Part shown: in pieces, positions 15,999 through 62,643 of the stretch | How positions within the stretch are numbered: the stretch's first letter is position 1 | Layout: the number at the start of each line of letters is the position of its first letter | From: an uncultured Candidatus Saccharibacteria bacterium | GTDB taxonomy: Bacteria; Patescibacteriota; Minisyncoccia; Phycocordibacterales; GCA-2401445 | NCBI GenBank assembly: GCA_964436015.1 | Contig: CAYTAR010000005.1 | Coordinates: 17,714-81,713 of the forward strand | DNA: 64,000 nt | Direction of reading: 5' to 3' | Program-made: the position numbers and the translations under genes | Notes under the pieces: generated by a model | Seen by the model: only the letters and a program-made list of their open reading frames with translations | Database searches by the model: none | Told to the model about the DNA's origin: nothing

Positions 15999-16553
15999 TT
16001 ATTTTTGAGGAGAGGCGTATTTGCGAGAAAATAGTAAACCAACAATAACCCCACACAAAACAGCTGTTACATATATAACCGCTCCTAGTGTGAGTGACAC
16101 GGGAAGTGACCTGAGTGCCCCTAGCACAATAGCACATGACCATGAGACGACTGATACTGAGCCGGTAATGATCAGAAATACTCGTGAGTTTTTGAACAGG
16201 TCTGATTCGTGTGTTGGTATATTGGTAATCGATTTCAGCAGTGGGAAAATTTTAAAATGGAAAAATGCACCGTTGATAATAAGTACTACTACGATACTCA
16301 TTTTCAGAATGAATTTACTTGAATCCAAGTATCCTTCTGGATCGAGTGCAAACAATCCAATACCAGAGGATACAAGCAGGATAAGTCCGCTCCACACCGC
16401 AACACTCATTCGCTTAATAATTCGTATTTCAGTGGGACTGAATATGTAGTCTTTGATTGAAGAGAGAAAAATAATGTCTGTCATAAAAGCTCCACCGGCG
16501 CCAATGGCAACTCCGAATAGATGGAGAATAACAAAAAAGGTATGTACGTCCAT
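15999..16553 (-). CDS. integral membrane protein (about 5 TM), unknown function
   Basis: Hydrophobic helices throughout; same strand and operon context as the downstream hypothetical. Confidence 0.5.
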   Translation of the reverse strand: MDVHTFFVILHLFGVAIGAGGAFMTDIIFLSSIKDYIFSPTEIRIIKRMSVAVWSGLILLVSSGIGLFALDPEGYLDSSKFILKMSIVVVLIINGAFFHFKIFPLLKSITNIPTHESDLFKNSRVFLIITGSVSVVSWSCAIVLGALRSLPVSLTLGAVIYVTAVLCGVIVGLLFSRKYASPQK

Positions 16554-19144: not shown

Positions 19145-20656
19145 ATGAAAAAAACACGACAAGTCGCACTTATTATCCTTGATGGGTGGGGGTACCGAGA
19201 AGAGACGAAAGATAATGCGATACGGCAAGCGAATACTCCGGTCATGGATCGTCTGTGGAATGAATTCCCGCACGCACTCTTGATGGCAAGTGAGGAGCAT
19301 GTTGGACTGCCACAAGGTCAGGTGGGGAACAGTGAAATCGGGCACACCACTATTGGTGCAGGGACGGTCATTGATTCAGACTTGGTACGTATTACCAAAG
19401 CGGTTGAGACGAGATCGTTTGGTACAAACAAAACATTCTTAGATTTATTTGAGCACGTAAAAAGTCATGGTTCTGTTCTGCATGTCATGGGTCTTATTGG
19501 GCGAGGAGGGGTACATGCGCACAGCACACACTTGGAAGAATTTCTGCGTGTGGCTCACGCAAGTGGAGTTGGAGAGATTGCGGTGCATGCATTTACAGAT
19601 GGGAGAGATTCTTCACCTAATGAAGCGCACGAGCACATCAAGGAACTTGAACATATCTTGGCAGAGCTTGGTATAGGATACATCGCGTCGGTATCGGGAA
19701 GATTTTTTTCAATGGATAGGGATAACAATTGGGATCGTCTGCAAACATTTGAAAAAACCGCTTTGTTCTGTGAAGGAAATGTGTGTCATATTCCGCCGAC
19801 TGAGGAATTGAAGCGTCAGTACGGTGAAGGAAAAAGCGATGAACACATTGAACCATTTATTGTACGCAAAGCACCGTTAAAAAAACATGATGGAGTATTT
19901 ATTTTTAATTTCAGAGCCGATCGCGTGAGAATGCTCACGAAACGTCTCACTGACATCAAAGCAGAACTTGATTTGAAAATTGTGACTCTAACTGAATACC
20001 AGAAAGATTTTCAAGTGGACGTGGCATTTCCGGTAATGGGAATAAAAACCACACTTGCTGAACAGGTAAGTTTGAATGGTTTGACACAAGTGCACATTGC
20101 AGAGACAGAAAAGTTTCCACATGCTACGTACTTTTTAAATGGGGGACGAGAGGAACCGCACGTGGGAGAAGAACATGTGGTGCTTCCGAGTAGAAAGGAT
20201 GTGTTAACGCATGATTTAGCACCTGAGATGCAGGCAATGGGGATTGCTGATGTGGCAATACAGAAAATAGAGAGTGGAGCAGATTTCACTTTTATCAATT
20301 TTGCGAACCCTGATATGGTGGGGCACACCGCCAATGTACCAGCGATTATAACTGCCATAGAAACAACTGATCGTGAATTAGGAAGAGTGCTAGATGCGCT
20401 CCTTGCTCGTGGAGGAGTGGCGTTTGTAACGGCAGATCACGGAAATGCTGAGATAAACCGTGACCCGAAGACAGGAGAGAAGCATACTGCTCATACACTC
20501 TCGCCGGTCCCCGCGATTCTGACTGACAAAGGACTCACACTTCATGATGGGTCTCTCAAGGATATAGCTCCGACCGTGCTTGCGTTACTCAATCTTTCCA
20601 TTCCTTCTGCAATGACAGGCGCGTTGCTTTTTGCAGAAAATAAAACACACCAGTAG
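19145..20656 (+). CDS. gpmI: 2,3-bisphosphoglycerate-independent phosphoglycerate mutase
   Basis: ILDGWG N-terminal motif and the ADHGN motif. Confidence 0.9.
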   Translation: MKKTRQVALIILDGWGYREETKDNAIRQANTPVMDRLWNEFPHALLMASEEHVGLPQGQVGNSEIGHTTIGAGTVIDSDLVRITKAVETRSFGTNKTFLDLFEHVKSHGSVLHVMGLIGRGGVHAHSTHLEEFLRVAHASGVGEIAVHAFTDGRDSSPNEAHEHIKELEHILAELGIGYIASVSGRFFSMDRDNNWDRLQTFEKTALFCEGNVCHIPPTEELKRQYGEGKSDEHIEPFIVRKAPLKKHDGVFIFNFRADRVRMLTKRLTDIKAELDLKIVTLTEYQKDFQVDVAFPVMGIKTTLAEQVSLNGLTQVHIAETEKFPHATYFLNGGREEPHVGEEHVVLPSRKDVLTHDLAPEMQAMGIADVAIQKIESGADFTFINFANPDMVGHTANVPAIITAIETTDRELGRVLDALLARGGVAFVTADHGNAEINRDPKTGEKHTAHTLSPVPAILTDKGLTLHDGSLKDIAPTVLALLNLSIPSAMTGALLFAENKTHQ

Positions 20657-27732: not shown

Positions 27733-27838
27733 TTTCAGTCTAGAAAGGGTATTTAAGTCCCTTTCCAGTAACAATATAGCATATTTTAGATAACTCAACA
27801 AATGGGGATAAGGGGAGAAATAAGCATATCTAGTACAT

Positions 27839-27902
27839 GTCTTATAATATTATAAGACATCATCATGTTGCTGTTTGTCTACTTATAATATTATAAGTAG
27901 AC
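27839..27902. promoter_or_regulatory. two perfect palindromic operators in the divergent abiEi / 27911 promoter region
   Basis: GTCTTATAATATTATAAGAC (20 bp, 27839-27858) and GTCTACTTATAATATTATAAGTAGAC (26 bp, 27877-27902) share the core CTTATAATATTATAAG. Confidence 0.6.
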
Positions 27903-40724: not shown

Positions 40725-41234
40725 TTATTTTGTGTCTTGAGGAGGACTGTATTCAATATCAATCGCCTTATCAGTAAAGAGTATTCCATCAAGGTGGTCT
40801 ATTTCATGTTGAAAAATTTGAGCAAGTAGCTTTGTCGCTCCAAACCGCTTTTTATTCCCTTGTTCATCATATGCTTCCATGAGTACTTTTTCTGAGCGAA
40901 GTACTTTACCATATACCCACCGAATGGAGAGACATCCCTCTTCCATGAGCTGTTTTTTCTGAGATCGCTTCACTAGTACTGGATTGATAAATACCGTGTC
41001 GTTTGATGGAGGTTTCGCTCCTTTACTCAGAGGTATTTTTTTTGACACGATAAACATCCGTATTGACTCTCCTATTTGAGGAGCTGCAAGTCCTGCACCA
41101 TCGTTCTCACGATCAAGCGCTTCTCGCATGTCGGCAATGACCTGTTGTATGCGTTTGCTCTGTATATCAGCGATCGGTATCGGAGTTGCCACTTCACGGA
41201 GAACCGGTGCGTCTTTTTGAAGTATGGTTACCAT
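40725..41234 (-). CDS. def: peptide deformylase
   Basis: GLAAPQIG, EGCLS and HEIDHLDG motifs. Confidence 0.9.
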   Translation of the reverse strand: MVTILQKDAPVLREVATPIPIADIQSKRIQQVIADMREALDRENDGAGLAAPQIGESIRMFIVSKKIPLSKGAKPPSNDTVFINPVLVKRSQKKQLMEEGCLSIRWVYGKVLRSEKVLMEAYDEQGNKKRFGATKLLAQIFQHEIDHLDGILFTDKAIDIEYSPPQDTK

Positions 41235-43156: not shown

Positions 43157-43921
43157 TTATGGAATAATCTGCTCTAACGTGTCGCCATTGAGCACGTATA
43201 GTGAACCATCATTTCCAGGAGAGAATCGCACGTTAGATCCACGATAGAGAGGTTGGAAGTTTTGAGGAATTCGCGTATCTATTTCAATAGCGAGAATATC
43301 TGTGTTGGTGCTAAAAATTACCACATCATTCCAGTTATCAAGGAAACCAACAGAGGTAATTGGTACAATGGGCTTAACGATTTGTTTTTCTCCGGAACAT
43401 GGCGTTACTTCGTCACTACAGAATGAGCGTGGGGGAGTGCTGGTTCCATTCCATGAGACGACTAGCGCTCCGTCATCTATGAATGCGAAAATATCTCCTT
43501 GTGGAGAGCGTAATGGCATATCACGAGTTGGGAGAATTGAGTTTTCAACGGTGTTTCGTATGGTGGTGTATTCAGGGTCGTTTTGAGGAATGAGAAAACC
43601 TCGTGTGTTACGTGAGAAGAGGAAGGGGTGCATGGTGAGTTGCTCTCCTGAATCTACTTCAAATTGCTTTGACCAAGGGAATAGGCCATCATGCGAAACA
43701 ATGATACTGTGTGTCCCACGAGAGATGGTACTGGTGAATGTTTGGTTTGATATACTTCCAGATTCTTTCTCGTTTATGTACACTGTTGCGCCGTCATAGG
43801 GTGCGATAATAGTGAGTACTGCCTTTGTAGAACCACTATACGCAGTGGCAATATAGACGACACCTATGGTGACGAGTAGCCCTATAAGGAGTATTCCAAT
43901 GGTCCAGTTGCGTTTCTTCAT
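43157..43921 (-). CDS. membrane-anchored hypothetical protein
   Basis: N-terminal TM helix followed by a beta-rich extracellular region; no domain recognised. Confidence 0.45.
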   Translation of the reverse strand: MKKRNWTIGILLIGLLVTIGVVYIATAYSGSTKAVLTIIAPYDGATVYINEKESGSISNQTFTSTISRGTHSIIVSHDGLFPWSKQFEVDSGEQLTMHPFLFSRNTRGFLIPQNDPEYTTIRNTVENSILPTRDMPLRSPQGDIFAFIDDGALVVSWNGTSTPPRSFCSDEVTPCSGEKQIVKPIVPITSVGFLDNWNDVVIFSTNTDILAIEIDTRIPQNFQPLYRGSNVRFSPGNDGSLYVLNGDTLEQIIP

Positions 43922-43963: not shown

Positions 43964-45499
43964 CTACTTTTCTCTCAAAATACTGATGCGCGCACCGAGG
44001 CTGTTGAGTCGTTTAATAATATCCTCGTACCCACGGTTAATACTATAAATATTTCGAAGGATTGAACGACCGTGTGCTCCGAGCATCCCAATTAGAATAA
44101 TTGCCCCTGGGCGAAGTGCGGGTGGGCAAATAACCTCAGCTGGTTTGAGTGTGCTTGGTCCAAGTATAAGTATGCGGTGTGGATCAAGGAGTACTGTGTC
44201 TGCACCAAGTTTGTCTAATTCTTTGTAGTGTATTGCTCGTTTTTCATACACCCAATCATGAATCATCGTCTGACCAGCCGCCTGTGTTGCAATAAGTGCA
44301 AAAAATGGAAGGTTGTCTATGTTGAGTCCTGGGTACGGGCGACATTCAATTTTTTCTGGAAGTGCGCGGAGTTTTGACTTTTTAACCACCAGGTCAACGA
44401 GTTCAGTTTTATTATTGTGCGAAAGGTATATATTGCTTTGTGTGTACCGCAGACCCATTGTCTTAAGTTTGAGAAGTTCAAGTTCAAGAAAACGGATAGG
44501 CGCTCGTTTTATGGTAATGGTTGATTGTGTGGTGATTGCAGTCGCGATAAAAAACATTGCATCAATTGGATCTTCAGCAAGGTGGTAGGTAACATCGGTA
44601 TGTATGCGTGAAAGTCCTCGCACCGTGAGGGTGCTGGTTCCTATTCCTTCAATACCAACTCCAAGGAGCTCCAGGAAAAAACACAGCTCTTGCACTTGGT
44701 AGTTCGCAGATGCATACCTAATCACGGTCGTTCCTGGTGTGGTCGCTGCTGCCATAAGCGCATTTTCAGTTACCGTATCTCCAGATTCATACAGTACGAT
44801 GTCTTTTGGCGAACGTGTGGTACTTGTTATTTCATACGAGTTGGGAGTTTCTACTATTTGTGCACCAAATGATTCAAGCGCGAGAAAGTGCGGGTGTACC
44901 GTTCTACTTCCAAGTTTACATCCACCTGGTTGTGGGATGGTAAATTGTTTGTAGCGATGGAGGAGGGGGCCAATCATCATGATTATACTGCGGGTTTTCT
45001 CTGCCGAAACGGTATTCATATTCTTGAAATGCAATTGCTCAGGAACCGTTATTTCAAGAGAAGTTTCTTTTCTTTGTACTTTTACTCCAATACTTACGAG
45101 TACTTCAATAATTCTGTTTACCTCTTCAATCTTCGGTACGTCAATGAGTGTAGTTTTCCCTGTATTCAAGAGTGAAGCAAACAGAAGTGCAACCGCAGCA
45201 TTTTTTGAAGTTCGTGTTTCTATGGTTCCTGAGAGGGGGGTTCCTCCGTGTATCTCAACATTGAGCGCACCATCTGATAGTTCAACTATATCGCGCTCAA
45301 GTGCGTCACTGATACTCGCAAGGAGTGCAGTAGAGACATTTTGCTCTCCATTTTCTATACGTGCGATGGCGCTTTGAGTAGTGTTAATACGTTTTGCTAA
45401 TTCTGCCTGAGTCAGATTTTTTTCTTCACGAAGTTTTTGAATAAGTGAGCCGATAAGTACAAGTTTGTTTATGGGTGTTTGTGGTGTGCGTTTTTTCAT
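43964..45499 (-). CDS. murA: UDP-N-acetylglucosamine 1-carboxyvinyltransferase with N-terminal XRE-type HTH domain fusion
   Basis: N-terminal LTQAELAKRINTTQSAIARIENG HTH_3 motif then MurA blocks (SKNAAVALLFASLL...); start at MKKRTP, supported by TTGAAC-17-TATGAT promoter 7 nt upstream. Confidence 0.8.
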   Translation of the reverse strand: MKKRTPQTPINKLVLIGSLIQKLREEKNLTQAELAKRINTTQSAIARIENGEQNVSTALLASISDALERDIVELSDGALNVEIHGGTPLSGTIETRTSKNAAVALLFASLLNTGKTTLIDVPKIEEVNRIIEVLVSIGVKVQRKETSLEITVPEQLHFKNMNTVSAEKTRSIIMMIGPLLHRYKQFTIPQPGGCKLGSRTVHPHFLALESFGAQIVETPNSYEITSTTRSPKDIVLYESGDTVTENALMAAATTPGTTVIRYASANYQVQELCFFLELLGVGIEGIGTSTLTVRGLSRIHTDVTYHLAEDPIDAMFFIATAITTQSTITIKRAPIRFLELELLKLKTMGLRYTQSNIYLSHNNKTELVDLVVKKSKLRALPEKIECRPYPGLNIDNLPFFALIATQAAGQTMIHDWVYEKRAIHYKELDKLGADTVLLDPHRILILGPSTLKPAEVICPPALRPGAIILIGMLGAHGRSILRNIYSINRGYEDIIKRLNSLGARISILREK

Positions 45500-45505
45500 T
45501 ACAAA

Positions 45506-45535
45506 ATCATAGCATATATGTGATATATGTTCAAA
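45506..45535 (-). promoter_or_regulatory. sigma70-like promoter of the HTH-murA gene (near-leaderless)
   Basis: On the minus strand, TTGAAC - 17 nt - TATGAT, ending 7 nt before the ATG. Confidence 0.45.
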
Positions 45536-45668
45536 ATGAACCATGTTGGGATAAAAATTATCTTTGAGCAAAAAAGCTTATGAATTGGCAGTGCCAGTGA
45601 GTTTTCATGAGTCGGTAGTTACAACACTCATTTACGGCACCAGTGCTACTCTGGTATGATGGAGTGAT

Positions 45669-46682
45669 ATGGGATTTTTTACTCACAAGATTGGTATTGA
45701 TTTGGGAACCGCAAACACGTTGGTCTACGTACCAAAGCGTGGCGTTGTGGTGAATGAGCCATCAGTAGTTGCAGTCTCAGAGCTTGATAATAGAATTCTT
45801 GCGGTAGGACTGGAGGCAAAAAATATGGTTGGACGAACTCCAGATAATATTATTGCGTATCGCCCTATGCGAGACGGGGTGATTGCCGATTATCGGGTTA
45901 CAGAGGCAATGCTCCGATATTACATTAAGAAGGCGCTTGGCCGTTGGAATATTTTGAAACCTGACGTTCTCGTCTCGGTGCCCGCGGGCGTTACTTCAAC
46001 CGAGCGACGTGCTGTGATTGAGGCAGCAATGAAGGCGGGAGCTCGGAATGCGTACGTGGTAAAGGAGCCAATTCTTGCAGCAATTGGTGCAGGTATTCCT
46101 ATTCATGAAGCAAAGGGGAGAATGATTGTTGATATCGGTGGCGGTACTACTGATGTGGCGGTTATATCGCTTGGAGGAATTGTTGCGTGTACCTCAGTGA
46201 AGTGTGCGGGTGATCGGATTGATAGTGCCATTGCTGACTATGTAAAGAAGACTTTTAATCTTGCTATTGGAGATAAGACTGCAGAGGAGATAAAGATGAA
46301 AGTGGGCACTGCCGTTCCACTAGAAGACCAGCTCGGCATGGTCATCAAGGGAAGAGATTACATTACCGGGCTTCCTCGAACCGCAGAAATACAAAGTAAC
46401 GAAATCGTGAAAGCTATTGCAAAAGAACTTCGTGAGATGGTAAAGGCAATTAAAGATGTGCTACAAGATACTCCTCCAGAATTATCTGCAGATATTATTG
46501 ATCACGGAATTACGATGACCGGAGGGACTTCACAGCTAAAAAATCTTCCAGAGCTCGTATATCGTCGCACGGGGGTAAAGGCGGTACTTGCTGACAACCC
46601 GCTCTACTGTGTAGCGCGGGGAACCGGTATTGCGCTTGAGCATTTGGAAACATACAAAAAGAGCATTATCACCAAACGGTAG
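45669..46682 (+). CDS. mreB: rod shape-determining protein MreB (copy 1)
   Basis: IGIDLGTANTLVY actin-fold N-terminus. Confidence 0.9.
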   Translation: MGFFTHKIGIDLGTANTLVYVPKRGVVVNEPSVVAVSELDNRILAVGLEAKNMVGRTPDNIIAYRPMRDGVIADYRVTEAMLRYYIKKALGRWNILKPDVLVSVPAGVTSTERRAVIEAAMKAGARNAYVVKEPILAAIGAGIPIHEAKGRMIVDIGGGTTDVAVISLGGIVACTSVKCAGDRIDSAIADYVKKTFNLAIGDKTAEEIKMKVGTAVPLEDQLGMVIKGRDYITGLPRTAEIQSNEIVKAIAKELREMVKAIKDVLQDTPPELSADIIDHGITMTGGTSQLKNLPELVYRRTGVKAVLADNPLYCVARGTGIALEHLETYKKSIITKR

Positions 46683-48015: not shown

Positions 48016-48567
48016 ATGGCGTATTCATTTTCTTCACTTGAAACAAAGCTCGCTGACATTCAAAAGTGGTTGTCACGGGAATTTGGAAATATTAGAACAG
48101 GGCGTGCAACTCCGACACTTCTTGATAGTATTTTTGTTGAGTCGTACGGTGCAAAAATGCCGATAGTGCAGGTGGCTTCTATGACGACTGAAGACGCACG
48201 AACACTCCGTGTTGTTCCGTGGGATCAGAGTCTACTCCGTGCAATTGAAAAGGCTATTACCGATGCAGGTCTTGGAGTGTCAGTTGGGGTTGATGATAAA
48301 GGAGTACGAGTATTTTTCCCCGAACTCACCAATGAACGAAGACAAGCACTTCTCAAAGTTGCGAAAGACAAGTTAGAGGATGCTCGTATTTCAGTAAAAA
48401 AGGAGCGAGATTTTGTATGGTCTGATATTCAAGCAAAAGAGAAAGAGGGAGAGTTGAGTGAAGATGAAAAATTCAAACTCAAGGATGAGATGCAAAAACG
48501 AATTGATGCCATGAACGGCTCACTTGATGAAATGCTTACCAGAAAGATTCAGGAAATACAAAACTAA
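48016..48567 (+). CDS. frr: ribosome recycling factor
   Basis: Frr-family sequence over the full length (…RTGRATP…). Confidence 0.9.
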   Translation: MAYSFSSLETKLADIQKWLSREFGNIRTGRATPTLLDSIFVESYGAKMPIVQVASMTTEDARTLRVVPWDQSLLRAIEKAITDAGLGVSVGVDDKGVRVFFPELTNERRQALLKVAKDKLEDARISVKKERDFVWSDIQAKEKEGELSEDEKFKLKDEMQKRIDAMNGSLDEMLTRKIQEIQN

Positions 48568-49722: not shown

Positions 49723-50976
49723 ATGCGACAACGTACACTCTTTACCAAAGTTAGAAAAGAAGCCCCAAAAGATGAGGTTTCAAAAAATGCACAACTATTG
49801 ATTCGGGCTGGTTTTATTCATAAGGAAATGGCGGGTGTGTATACACTCTTACCGCTCGGACTTCGGGTAATTCAAAACATAGCTCGGGTTATTAGACGTG
49901 AAATGGATGGGGTGGGAGGAGTAGAGCTTTCATTGACTACACTTCAAGAAAAGGAGGCGTGGGAGAAGACGGGAAGGTGGAGTGATGATGTGGTAGATAA
50001 TTGGTTTAAGACAACACTTAAAAGTGGCACTGAACTTGGGCTTGGGTTTACTCATGAAGAACCACTGACACAACTAATTTCAGAACATGTTGCATCATAT
50101 CGCGACTTACCAATACTTGCGTACCAGATACAAACCAAATTTAGAAATGAACTGCGTGCAAAGAGTGGCATTATGCGCGGGCGTGAGTTTCTAATGAAGG
50201 ACCTGTATTCTTTTTCTCGGACACAAAGTGAACATGATGAGTTGTATGCAAAAATTGCAGAAGCGTACGTTCGTATTTTTGATACGGTGGGCATCGGGGA
50301 GAATACCTATTATACCTACGCGTCCGGTGGAACTTTTGCGAAGTTTTCTCATGAGTTTCAGACGGTAACAGACGCAGGTGAAGATACTATCTATGTTCAC
50401 GAGGAAGACTCCATCGCTATTAATGAAGAAATTATCAAAGATGAATCAATACAGTCACAGTTTAATCTTGAACATTTTGTTCCACGAAAAGCAGTTGAGG
50501 TTGGTAACATTTTCAGTTTAGGAACAAAATTCTCTCAGCCATTGTCGCTTAATTATGTCGCTGATACGGGAGAAAGTATGCCCGTGATTATGGGTTCGTA
50601 CGGTATTGGACTTGGACGATTGATGGGAGTGGTAGCTGAACTGCTTTCAGACGCTCAAGGTTTGGTGTGGCCAGTAACTATTGCACCGTTCACGCTTCAT
50701 TTGGTTTGTGTTGGTGAAGATGAGGAGGTGGTATCGTATGCGGAAGATTTGTACCAAAAGCTACTTACTCGAGGGGTATCTGTGTTGTTTGATGACCGCT
50801 CATTGTCTGCAGGTGCAAAATTTGCTGAGAGTGATTTGATCGGTATTCCTTTTCGTGCGGTCGTGAGTAAGAAGACCATGGCAGACGGAGTGGTTGAGTT
50901 GAAGAAGCGCGCGAGTGGAGCAGTTACGCGAGTGTCTGAGGATGAATTAATGGGTGATATGAGTGCGTATGTTTGA
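49723..50976 (+). CDS. proS: prolyl-tRNA synthetase, short form without INS editing domain
   Basis: Class II motifs and a ProRS-specific N-terminus; only 417 aa. Confidence 0.85.
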   Translation: MRQRTLFTKVRKEAPKDEVSKNAQLLIRAGFIHKEMAGVYTLLPLGLRVIQNIARVIRREMDGVGGVELSLTTLQEKEAWEKTGRWSDDVVDNWFKTTLKSGTELGLGFTHEEPLTQLISEHVASYRDLPILAYQIQTKFRNELRAKSGIMRGREFLMKDLYSFSRTQSEHDELYAKIAEAYVRIFDTVGIGENTYYTYASGGTFAKFSHEFQTVTDAGEDTIYVHEEDSIAINEEIIKDESIQSQFNLEHFVPRKAVEVGNIFSLGTKFSQPLSLNYVADTGESMPVIMGSYGIGLGRLMGVVAELLSDAQGLVWPVTIAPFTLHLVCVGEDEEVVSYAEDLYQKLLTRGVSVLFDDRSLSAGAKFAESDLIGIPFRAVVSKKTMADGVVELKKRASGAVTRVSEDELMGDMSAYV

Positions 50977-61646: not shown

Positions 61647-62624
61647 ATGGCATTTACTGATGAAGTACACATACATCTCAAAGCTGGTCGCGGAGGCGAC
61701 GGCGTTGTTCGCTGGCGACACGAAAAAGGGAAGGAGTTCATGGGACCAGCCGGTGGAAACGGCGGAAGAGGAGGGAGTGTGTTCGTTACCGCAATTCATG
61801 ACATTATGCGCCTCGCATCCTTTCGTCATGTAACTGAACTGACCGCAGGCAATGGAGACCCCGGGTTTAACTCAAGCAAGCAAGGTAAGTCTGGAAAAGA
61901 TTTAGTTCTTGAAGTTCCAGTTGGAACGGTTATCACAAACATGAACACGGGAGAATCGTGGGACTTGGTGAACGTGGGGGAAACGGCGGAAATTCTTAAA
62001 GGTGGACCTGGAGGGATGGGGAATGAGCATTTTAAAGGTTCCACAAACACTACCCCAACAAAAGCCACTTCTGGAAAAAATGGTGAAGAAGCAGATTTTC
62101 TTTTTGAACTGAAGCTCATCGCCGACATTGGTTTTGTGGGTTTACCAAATGCGGGTAAATCAAGTTTGCTTAATGAGATGACCAAAGCGCATGCAAAAGT
62201 GGGTGCATATTCTTTTACGACCCTTGAACCGAACCTTGGTGCAATGAACGGTTTTATACTTGCAGACATCCCAGGGTTGATTGAGGGAGCGTCGGACGGC
62301 AAGGGGCTCGGACATAAGTTTTTGAGACACATTGCCCGAACGAGAATGTTGCTTCATTGTGTATCTCTGGAATCCGAGAACCCTTATAAAGACTACCTAT
62401 CTATCCGAGATGAGCTAGAAAAGTACGATGCACGTTTGATCGAAAAAGATGAAGTCGTGGTTCTCACCAAAACTGACACGGTTGATGAGAATCGTCGTGC
62501 AGAGGTACAAAATGAGTTTGCGATTACTGGTAAGCTCGTATTGACGGTATCTATTCTTGATGATACTTCAGTTAAACATTTAAAGGAAAAACTATCAACG
62601 CTTCTGGGTAGCCAAACAGTCTAA
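61647..62624 (+). CDS. obg: GTPase Obg/CgtA
   Basis: Gly-rich Obg fold N-terminus (GGDGVV...GGNGGRGG) and G-domain motif GLPNAGKSSL. Confidence 0.9.
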   Translation: MAFTDEVHIHLKAGRGGDGVVRWRHEKGKEFMGPAGGNGGRGGSVFVTAIHDIMRLASFRHVTELTAGNGDPGFNSSKQGKSGKDLVLEVPVGTVITNMNTGESWDLVNVGETAEILKGGPGGMGNEHFKGSTNTTPTKATSGKNGEEADFLFELKLIADIGFVGLPNAGKSSLLNEMTKAHAKVGAYSFTTLEPNLGAMNGFILADIPGLIEGASDGKGLGHKFLRHIARTRMLLHCVSLESENPYKDYLSIRDELEKYDARLIEKDEVVVLTKTDTVDENRRAEVQNEFAITGKLVLTVSILDDTSVKHLKEKLSTLLGSQTV

Positions 62625-62643
62625 TTTCGTCTATGCTATCTGC

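Follow-up and report, generated by a model that had tools for sequence, protein, structure and literature searches.

We analysed a 64,000-nucleotide stretch of contig CAYTAR010000005.1 (hereafter the window), in which the gene for MurA, the enzyme that catalyses the committed step of peptidoglycan synthesis and is targeted by fosfomycin, also encodes an N-terminal helix-turn-helix (HTH) domain of the XRE family. On the minus strand, an uninterrupted open reading frame (ORF) begins with an in-frame TTG at 45571 and ends with the stop at 43964. The start that matches those of relatives is the ATG at 45499 (MKKRTPQ...), which gives a protein of 511 residues with no internal stops, the stop-inclusive end being 43964. 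We refer to this protein as HTH-MurA; its parts are as follows.

43964..45499, minus strand: coding sequence of HTH-MurA, 511 amino acids plus stop (a single ORF with domain matches; the N-termini of homologues agree with the start)
45278..45442, minus strand: XRE/Cro-C1 HTH_3 domain, residues 20-74 (HTH_3 E = 1e-14; helices in the AlphaFold2 model)
45353..45382, minus strand: start of the recognition helix and its flank, TTQSAIARIE, residues 40-49 (Q42, S43, R47 and E49 invariant; T41/S41 co-variation)
45266..45298, minus strand: flexible linker, residues 68-78 (AlphaFold2 predicted local distance difference test score, pLDDT, of about 60, and below 50 at residues 73-75)
43979..45259, minus strand: MurA catalytic module, residues 81-507 (NF006873, alignment with PDB MurA chains, eight invariant catalytic residues)
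44918..44920, minus strand: codon of the catalytic Cys194 in the PGGCKLGSR loop (read from the sequence; PDB chains align PGGC(A/K)(I/L)G)

Pfam assigned residues 20-74 to HTH_3 (54.7 bits against a cutoff of 23) and residues 84-498 to EPSP_synthase (E = 1e-47), and the peptide quoted in the original prediction, LTQAELAKRINTTQSAIARIENG, is present in the protein. The NCBIfam MurA model NF006873 was matched with 325.9 bits (cutoff 297) over profile positions 4-416 of 419, while the AroA profile reached only 65 bits. The score against the strict equivalog TIGR01072 was 315.1 bits, under its cutoff of 392.7, which places the enzyme in a divergent MurA clade. In a sequence search, PDB MurA chains matched residues 76-511 only (E = 3e-50), and the N-terminal extension was absent from all 32 matched chains (E ≤ 1e-20; 418-458 residues; alignment from query residue 76 on). 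Motif alignment equates Cys194 with Cys115 of E. coli MurA, the cysteine targeted by fosfomycin, which is thus retained. The MurA catalytic residues K99, N100, C194, R199, D395, R421, R463 and R489 are invariant in 82 sequences; the catalytic set of the MurA literature is, in E. coli numbering, Lys22, Asn23, Cys115, Arg120, Asp305, Arg331, Arg371 and Arg397. From this full set, the module is predicted to be catalytically competent. The AlphaFold2 model (pLDDT 86.6, predicted template modelling score 0.80) contains a confident two-lobed MurA, and canonical MurA from E. coli, E. cloacae and C. difficile (PDB 1UAE, 1NAW and 6Q03) shares this fold over residues 81-507, with all active-site residues present. 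HTH-MurA differs from these enzymes in its overall sequence, identity being roughly one third in the alignment with PDB chains, in the 80-residue HTH plus linker, and in an insertion of about 12 residues (the YLSHNNKTELVDLVVKKSKLRAL region, residues ~357-380, window 44360-44430) relative to all aligned solved MurA structures, which was modelled as strands with good confidence. The HTH itself was modelled as four helices (residues 12-26, 31-38, 42-49 and 57-67), with a pLDDT of 80-91 over residues 11-50 and 74 over residues 51-70. Its closest matches in the PDB are for the most part repressors and antitoxins that bind DNA (434 repressor, HipB, PezA, ClgR and the controller (C-) proteins of restriction-modification systems), and the eukaryotic EDF1/MBF1 was also matched.

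The same architecture was found in every one of the 120 best homologues, which carry HTH_3 plus EPSP_synthase (63-81% identity, 499-538 residues) and come from NCBI, JGI, ENA and Logan assemblies. A scan of species representatives returned a relative in at least 583 GTDB species; we kept 80 loci for analysis, and 79 of these match from residue 16 or earlier. The kept loci belong to Paceibacteria/Parcubacteria, Saccharibacteria, Uhr-, Doudna-, Kerfeld-, Gracili- and Peribacteria and, unexpectedly, to the cultured Actinomycetota Knoellia subterranea, Brachybacterium vulturis and Nocardioides. A second protein search revealed that the fusion is common in the Intrasporangiaceae and Dermatophilaceae (Terrabacter, Phycicoccus, Humibacillus, Intrasporangium, Tetrasphaera and Nostocoides), where the proteins are annotated as MurA or as 'helix-turn-helix domain-containing protein'. 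A search of representatives with residues 1-130 found many 50%-identity clusters that span the HTH-MurA junction, although the matches were mostly fragments. The original prediction of an HTH fused in frame to a complete MurA, which gave no strand for the gene, is thus borne out by a single ORF, by two domains above their curated cutoffs and by conservation in relatives, the check it had proposed on orthologs giving the extension in 120/120 best homologues and 79/80 kept loci. It had also named a sequencing frameshift separating the HTH from murA, or an assembly artefact revealed by relatives, as what would overturn the fusion. The presence of the same architecture in these independent assemblies, including complete genomes of cultured Actinomycetota, rules this out, and we regard the probability of an artefact that joins a small regulator gene to murA as negligible.

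Within the HTH, residues Q42, S43, R47, E49, G51, Q53 and N54 are invariant in 81 of 81 HTH-bearing sequences, and mean pairwise identity over 82 sequences is 55.5% for the HTH and 61.4% for the MurA part. Invariant residues and identity in each half indicate that both the HTH and the enzyme are under purifying selection. In an unbootstrapped neighbour-joining tree, the HTH-MurA sequences of Actinomycetota and of Saccharibacteria form sister clades (loci L057, L059, L064, L065, L072, L074, L075, L077 and L078 versus L045, L048, L049, L052, L056 and L076 in our numbering), and the recognition helices of the two are nearly identical (SAINRIEKG.QN.SLEMLARI). Cultured Saccharibacteria are epibionts of Actinomycetota, and this lifestyle together with the sister clades hints at host-epibiont transfer of HTH-MurA.

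Translated in frame, the DNA upstream of the relatives repeatedly yields 'HICY', 'SIYAI' or 'YIAY'. These are one DNA motif read in different frames, and the conservation is therefore non-coding. When the loci were aligned on the start codon, a 16-18-bp palindrome emerged in most of them, with the 16-bp consensus ATAGCATATATGCTAT. It takes the form of the 18-mer TATAGCATATATGCTATA in Paceibacteria, of TATATCATATATGATATA in many other Patescibacteria, and of TATCTCATAT.TGAGATA in Actinomycetota and some Nomurabacteria-like loci; the actinobacterial variants are ATCTCA-N4-TGAGAT at -27/-28, and the type found at their own promoter is ATCTCATAT-N-TGAGAT. With at most one mismatch, ATANCANNNNTGNTAT occurs within 120 nt upstream in 60 of 77 loci, whereas the rest of these loci, 639 kb in total, contains it at a background rate of 0.083 per kb, or about 0.01 expected per promoter. 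Most other loci have recognisable variants of the palindrome at the equivalent position. Among the 76 HTH-bearing loci whose upstream sequence was usable, 46 place the beginning of the operator between -23 and -29. Its arms are centred 10 bp apart; arms one helical turn apart are the classic geometry for dimers of Cro/C1-type HTH proteins such as the 434, lambda and P22 repressors. Moreover, the right arm, TG[C/A]TAT, forms with the next three bases an extended -10 element (TGnTAnnnT), and the -35 element lies a few bases upstream of the left arm. A protein on the palindrome would thus block the core promoter. In the window, the corresponding elements are these.

45529..45534, minus strand: -35 hexamer TTGAAC, followed by a 17-nt spacer (promoter scan)
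45509..45524, not assigned to a strand: predicted operator, ATAGCATATATGTGAT on the plus strand and ATCACATATATGCTAT on the gene strand (top match of the position weight matrix, PWM, in the same register as in relatives)
45506..45514, minus strand: extended -10 TGcTATGAT, with TATGAT at 45506-45511 (overlaps the right arm of the operator)
45500..45505, minus strand: six nucleotides, TTTGTA, between the -10 and the ATG, predicted leaderless with no Shine-Dalgarno (SD) sequence (sequence reading)

The window operator is one mismatch away from ATANCANNNNTGNTAT, with a perfect right arm and a diverged left arm; in the closest relative (L081, 81% identity), the same register is occupied by ATCTCATATATGCTAT. 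A PWM trained on relatives alone, with the window excluded, gave this site its highest score anywhere in the 64 kb, 17.6 bits, followed by a match of 11.6 bits (the training sites span 10.1-26.0 bits). By this measure, the window contains a single convincing site, which gives no ground for a regulon within it. The weak matches at 62624-62639 (ATTTCGTCTATGCTAT, 11.6 bits) and at 27776-27791 (ATAGCATATTTTAGAT, 10.8 bits, at the edge of the divergent intergenic region 27802-27874) are probably not sites, because their scores are at or just above the lowest training score. A local dyad, CATATAT-N3-ATATATG (45513-45529), was set aside as secondary, as it consists of AT repeats and is out of register with the family site.

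Some further elements surround the family site in relatives. In the Saccharibacteria loci L045, L048, L049, L052, L056 and L076, a second operator-like 16-mer (ATATCAGCCTTGAGAT or ATATCAGCCTTGATAT) lies at +142, within the HTH-coding region, and may reflect chance in the coding sequence or an auxiliary site inside the gene. In addition, a DnaA-box consensus, TTATCCACA, was found in the 150 nt upstream of HTH-murA starts, mostly just upstream of the palindrome and the -35 and nearly always in murA orientation. It is perfect in L028, L030, L035, L037, L038, L039 and L050, and 15 further sites have one mismatch (12 of them in murA orientation), which amounts to 0.59 per kb upstream of murA versus 0.010 per kb in the rest of the loci. 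No copy with up to one mismatch occurs in the window, where the most similar sequence, TTATCCCAACA, precedes the murA ATG by about 45-55 nt on the gene strand. The box may act as an additional regulatory input or belong to the mreB promoter.

The TTGAAC-17-TATGAT promoter of the original prediction, ending 7 nt before the ATG, is confirmed by the sequence and has an extended -10 (TGc) besides; the last base of the -10 is at -7 relative to the ATG, and no AGGAGG-like element lies upstream of it. Matches to promoter consensus in the 3-kb region were as numerous as in shuffled sequences (6 found, 6.0 expected), and the promoter call therefore rests on position and on comparison. In the 46 of 76 loci with an operator beginning between -23 and -29, this position puts the end of the -10 some 4-10 nt from the start codon, and the actinobacterial loci have a TAnnnT hexamer that ends 6-7 nt ahead of an ATG or GTG. 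The arrangement is also frequent elsewhere in the window: a TAnnnT hexamer ends exactly 6 nt before the ATG in 9 of 40 ATG genes, 5 of them with TGn, other distances accounting for about 0-3 genes each, and a loose SD match was found at only 9 of 55 ORF starts. Examples of the pattern are the starts of 15999-16553(-), 19145-20656(+), 40725-41234(-), 48016-48567(+), 49723-50976(+) and the gene at 45669(+). The peak at 6 nt and the scarcity of SD sequences suggest that leaderless, SD-free initiation is a general style of this Paceibacteria-like genome and seems to be the default for genes that come first in an operon. The near-leaderless, SD-less murA of the original prediction thus held as geometry, in the window and in 46/76 relatives, but is not special to murA. 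Leaderless mRNAs of Actinomycetota and Deinococcus-Thermus likewise have a -10 that ends 6-7 nt before the ATG and no SD; what differs here is that the pattern appears as a genome-wide style in a member of the Patescibacteria and that the murA -10 is embedded in an operator. We found no description of leaderless expression in Patescibacteria in full-text literature searches.

These elements also bear on the annotated start. The NCBI gene call (P0001, 526 residues) starts at the ATG at 45544, 15 codons upstream of 45499. Its 15 extra residues (MVHFEHISHICYDFV, window 45500-45544) are promoter and operator read as protein, and the start is probably wrong, that is, over-extended, because this ATG lies upstream of the -35 and the extension crosses both elements.

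Does the HTH of MurA read the palindrome? The residue before the invariant Q-S pair, residue 41, with which the recognition helix begins, co-varies with base 4 of the half-site: T41 goes with G in 66 of 72 half-sites, and S41 with T in 69 of 78. Two loci, L005 and L012, have S41 inside the 'T' clade, and each lacks G in one or both arms. The only relative without an HTH, L058 (L058:1140-1260), has a murA that starts with MKMNLKIEGG and an mreB 104 nt upstream; of its palindrome, the -10 arm TGCTAT is retained, with TATATT 6 nt before the second ATG, but the left arm has decayed. Moreover, we ran the search in reverse and retrieved metagenome contigs with the exact 18-mer TATAGCATATATGCTATA, for which 80 matches were listed (L082-L161). 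Among these listed matches, 52 of 80 loci have an XRE-HTH gene within 800 nt that is transcribed away from the 18-mer, and XRE-HTH starts occur at 0.48 per kb near it versus 0.003 per kb further off in the same loci; only 4 of the 80 are HTH-murA. The 18-mer was found in two other contexts, namely upstream of a standalone HTH_3 protein of about 95 residues whose ATG abuts the palindrome (MKRQHLDF...TKQSVISRLESG), and upstream of an operon with a Gp49 toxin (PF05973, HigB/RelE-like) first and an XRE antitoxin second. Most of the XRE-HTH loci listed are such Gp49-XRE toxin-antitoxin modules. The recognition helices encoded at these loci (GTKQSVISRLESG) resemble that of MurA (NTTQSAIARIENG). As the 18-mer elsewhere associates with XRE-HTH genes and seldom with murA, the palindrome appears to belong to the HTH and not to murA or mreB. 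The 18-mer loci cover a wide range of GC content; two copies lie 33 bp apart in L161 and about 1 kb apart in L159. Taken together, the promoter palindrome across phyla, the co-variation of the helix and the ties to XRE-HTH genes elsewhere strongly support, by sequence comparison, the autoregulation that the original prediction had suggested.

That prediction had offered, as a second option, localisation coupled to the adjacent mreB. The relevant neighbours in the window are the following.

45669..46682, plus strand: mreB, divergent from murA (MreB_Mbl E = 3e-134)
43157..43921, minus strand: PEGA-domain membrane protein, 42 nt after murA, co-transcription probable (PEGA E = 8e-6)

The gene for mreB has a promoter-like site of its own, TTTACG-18-TGgTATGAT (45631-45660), 8 nt before its ATG, and is followed on the plus strand by holB, a 141-residue ORF, frr and an M50 protease gene. 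Downstream of murA, the order on the minus strand is the PEGA protein (an arrangement shared by the closest relative), a 627-residue protein with no Pfam match that is PriA-like in our judgement, def and fmt. Among the relatives, mreB was matched in 39 loci, mostly divergent and upstream of murA (about 35 Paceibacteria loci), and in about two dozen the murA-mreB intergenic region is only 64-200 nt. The palindrome abuts the mreB -35 in the most compact loci, where co-repression of mreB is conceivable; some 110 bp separate the two promoters in the window. The register of the palindrome is fixed to murA, not to mreB. The fusion and the palindrome persist in Saccharibacteria and Actinomycetota loci in which no mreB was matched within 4 kb on each side; in two actinobacterial loci, the flanking Pfam-matched genes are unrelated (FadB-like, methyltransferase, GDPD and MFS transporter).

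From these observations we propose that HTH-MurA is a bifunctional enzyme and autorepressor, a 'trigger enzyme' whose HTH and operator form an antitoxin-like module, a reading to which we give a probability of roughly 70%. The HTH would bind the 16-bp palindrome as a presumed dimer, with half-sites centred 10 bp apart. As the operator occupies the spacer and the extended -10 of the murA promoter, the bound protein would exclude RNA polymerase, and negative autoregulation would hold MurA at a set level. The transcript would start at or within a few bases of the ATG, giving a leaderless mRNA, and the HTH with its operator would be a module common to Gp49-type XRE antitoxins that was captured by MurA. 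Several points weigh against this proposal. Crystallised MurA enzymes are generally described as monomers. The window operator is imperfect, its left arm being ATCACA instead of ATAGCA and its score of 17.6 bits comparing with a family median of 22.8. The T/S-G/T co-variation is largely split between two clades and for this reason reflects only a small number of independent events. About a third of the loci have the palindrome further from the assigned start, at 30-175 nt upstream, so that either some lineages have a leader or the start assignment is wrong there, and the leaderless geometry is not universal among relatives. The starts of relatives were set heuristically as the last in-frame ATG before the HTH, which is conservative for the operator-to-ATG distance. 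Finally, a separate XRE protein, for example an antitoxin of the same specificity, could bind the site.

This last point leads to the strongest of the other explanations, although we consider it unlikely: the palindrome would be the operator of a separate XRE regulator, such as a Gp49-partnered antitoxin, and the HTH of MurA would serve for protein contact or have a vestigial, antitoxin-like role. The 18-mer does sit near the promoters of many standalone XRE genes and Gp49-XRE modules, which means that proteins reading it exist outside MurA. However, no other gene with a similar HTH was found in the window, and murA is the only XRE-like gene found beside the site in all related loci but one. 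Moreover, the recognition-helix residues of MurA are invariant and co-vary with the site, and the HTH-less L058 has a decayed one. Somewhat less probable is that the palindrome is a promoter feature only, formed by two back-to-back extended -10 elements (TGCTATA on either strand) for divergent leaderless transcription with no repressor involved. Such a design would agree with the right arm being a TGnTAnnnT -10, with the divergent mreB of about 35 Paceibacteria loci, at intergenic distances as short as 64 nt, and with the frequency of leaderless promoters in this genome. It does not account for the other leaderless promoters in the window, which have no left arm, nor for mreB having its own -10 near its ATG, well off the palindrome in most loci. 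The palindrome also persists in Saccharibacteria and Actinomycetota loci in which no nearby mreB match was found, and its association with HTH genes in 52 of the 80 metagenome loci listed is equally at odds with a mere promoter element.

We rank about as low, if not marginally lower, a role of the HTH as a RodZ-like module that tethers MurA to MreB filaments, which would correspond to the localisation option mentioned above. RodZ is known to use an XRE-like HTH to bind MreB and, like HTH-MurA, it is a wall/morphogenesis protein encoded beside mreB; the divergent mreB of the window and of most of the 39 loci with mreB fits this picture. In contrast to RodZ, HTH-MurA has no transmembrane segment, no RodZ C-terminal domain and no match to the RodZ-type HTH_25 profile, and the HTH is followed directly by MurA. 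The HTH scored 16 bits against HTH_25 (cutoff 24.6) and 58.9 bits against HTH_3, for which its scores range from 54.7 to 58.9. The PDB matches of the HTH comprise only DNA binders and MBF1/EDF1, with no RodZ among them, and the palindrome and its co-variation with the helix point to DNA recognition. Because the register of the palindrome follows murA, because fusion and palindrome persist in lineages with no nearby mreB match and because HTH_25 stays below its cutoff, the coupling to mreB is not supported and the HTH is better described as Cro/C1-type.

The proposed autorepressor has parallels among known proteins. Trigger enzymes combine an enzyme and a DNA-binding domain, and HTH-MurA has both in one polypeptide, each apparently under purifying selection. 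BirA (biotin-protein ligase and repressor of bio), NadR and PutA likewise join an N-terminal DNA-binding domain to a metabolic enzyme, and, as for BirA-type proteins, the predicted target of HTH-MurA is the promoter of a gene of its own pathway, at a site overlapping the core promoter. They differ in the fold of the DNA-binding domain, which is a winged HTH in BirA, a ribbon-helix-helix in PutA and an HTH of its own type in NadR, against the Cro/C1 (XRE) HTH of HTH-MurA. BirA also dimerises in a ligand-dependent manner (with bio-5'-AMP), while ligand control of HTH-MurA is speculation. The closest likeness in the HTH itself is to Gp49 (PF05973) XRE antitoxins and standalone XRE autoregulators, which are about 45-50% identical over residues 20-74, share a recognition helix of the type T[TK]QS[AV]I[AS]R[IL]E.G and have the identical 18-bp palindrome immediately upstream of the operon. 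In HTH-MurA, by contrast, the HTH is covalently fused to an essential enzyme, and no toxin gene is adjacent: the neighbours of murA in the window are the PEGA protein gene and mreB, with no Gp49 gene next to it. As a separate observation, the antitoxin PezA (PDB 2p5t) was the second-best PDB match of the HTH (window 45353-45442) and also an NCBIfam match. PezA is the partner antitoxin of zeta/PezT, a toxin that poisons MurA via UDP-GlcNAc-3-phosphate (PMC3062530). The resemblance is probably generic XRE similarity, although the link between an antitoxin HTH and MurA is curious.

By analogy with BirA, we also entertain, with considerable reserve, the idea of a one-component regulator in which the MurA domain acts as the sensor. 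Its open or closed state, set by UDP-N-acetylglucosamine (UDP-GlcNAc), phosphoenolpyruvate or UDP-N-acetylmuramic acid (UDP-MurNAc), might control dimerisation or operator binding, so that precursor supply would set murA transcription. MurA is known to form a 'dormant' complex with UDP-MurNAc. Such control could extend to mreB in compact Paceibacteria, and antitoxins of the same cell that share the operator could cross-regulate the committed step of wall synthesis.

Full-text literature searches found no description of HTH-MurA or any DNA-binding MurA, of its palindrome or of the link between the palindrome and Gp49-XRE modules. The architecture can be read from precomputed Pfam annotations, and MurA is the name routinely given to the proteins. 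HTH-MurA thus appears akin to known trigger enzymes and to autoregulating XRE proteins, and what would be new is the enzyme, the operator and the Gp49-XRE link. Known control of MurA in model bacteria is post-translational, through ClpCP proteolysis with ReoM/IreB in Firmicutes and through feedback by UDP-MurNAc. The proposal is directly testable, as it names an explicit 16-bp site and includes cultivable hosts (Knoellia, Terrabacter, Nocardioides and Brachybacterium). The start-site geometry in the window points to leaderless, SD-free expression as the usual mode in this Paceibacteria genome. More broadly, an XRE HTH/operator module would be common to toxin-antitoxin systems and a housekeeping enzyme. 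If the proposal is true, a MurA equipped with a repressor domain and an operator of its own would represent a new, minimal form of wall-precursor homeostasis, one conserved in several families of cultured Actinomycetota and throughout much of the Patescibacteria, a group with very few regulators.

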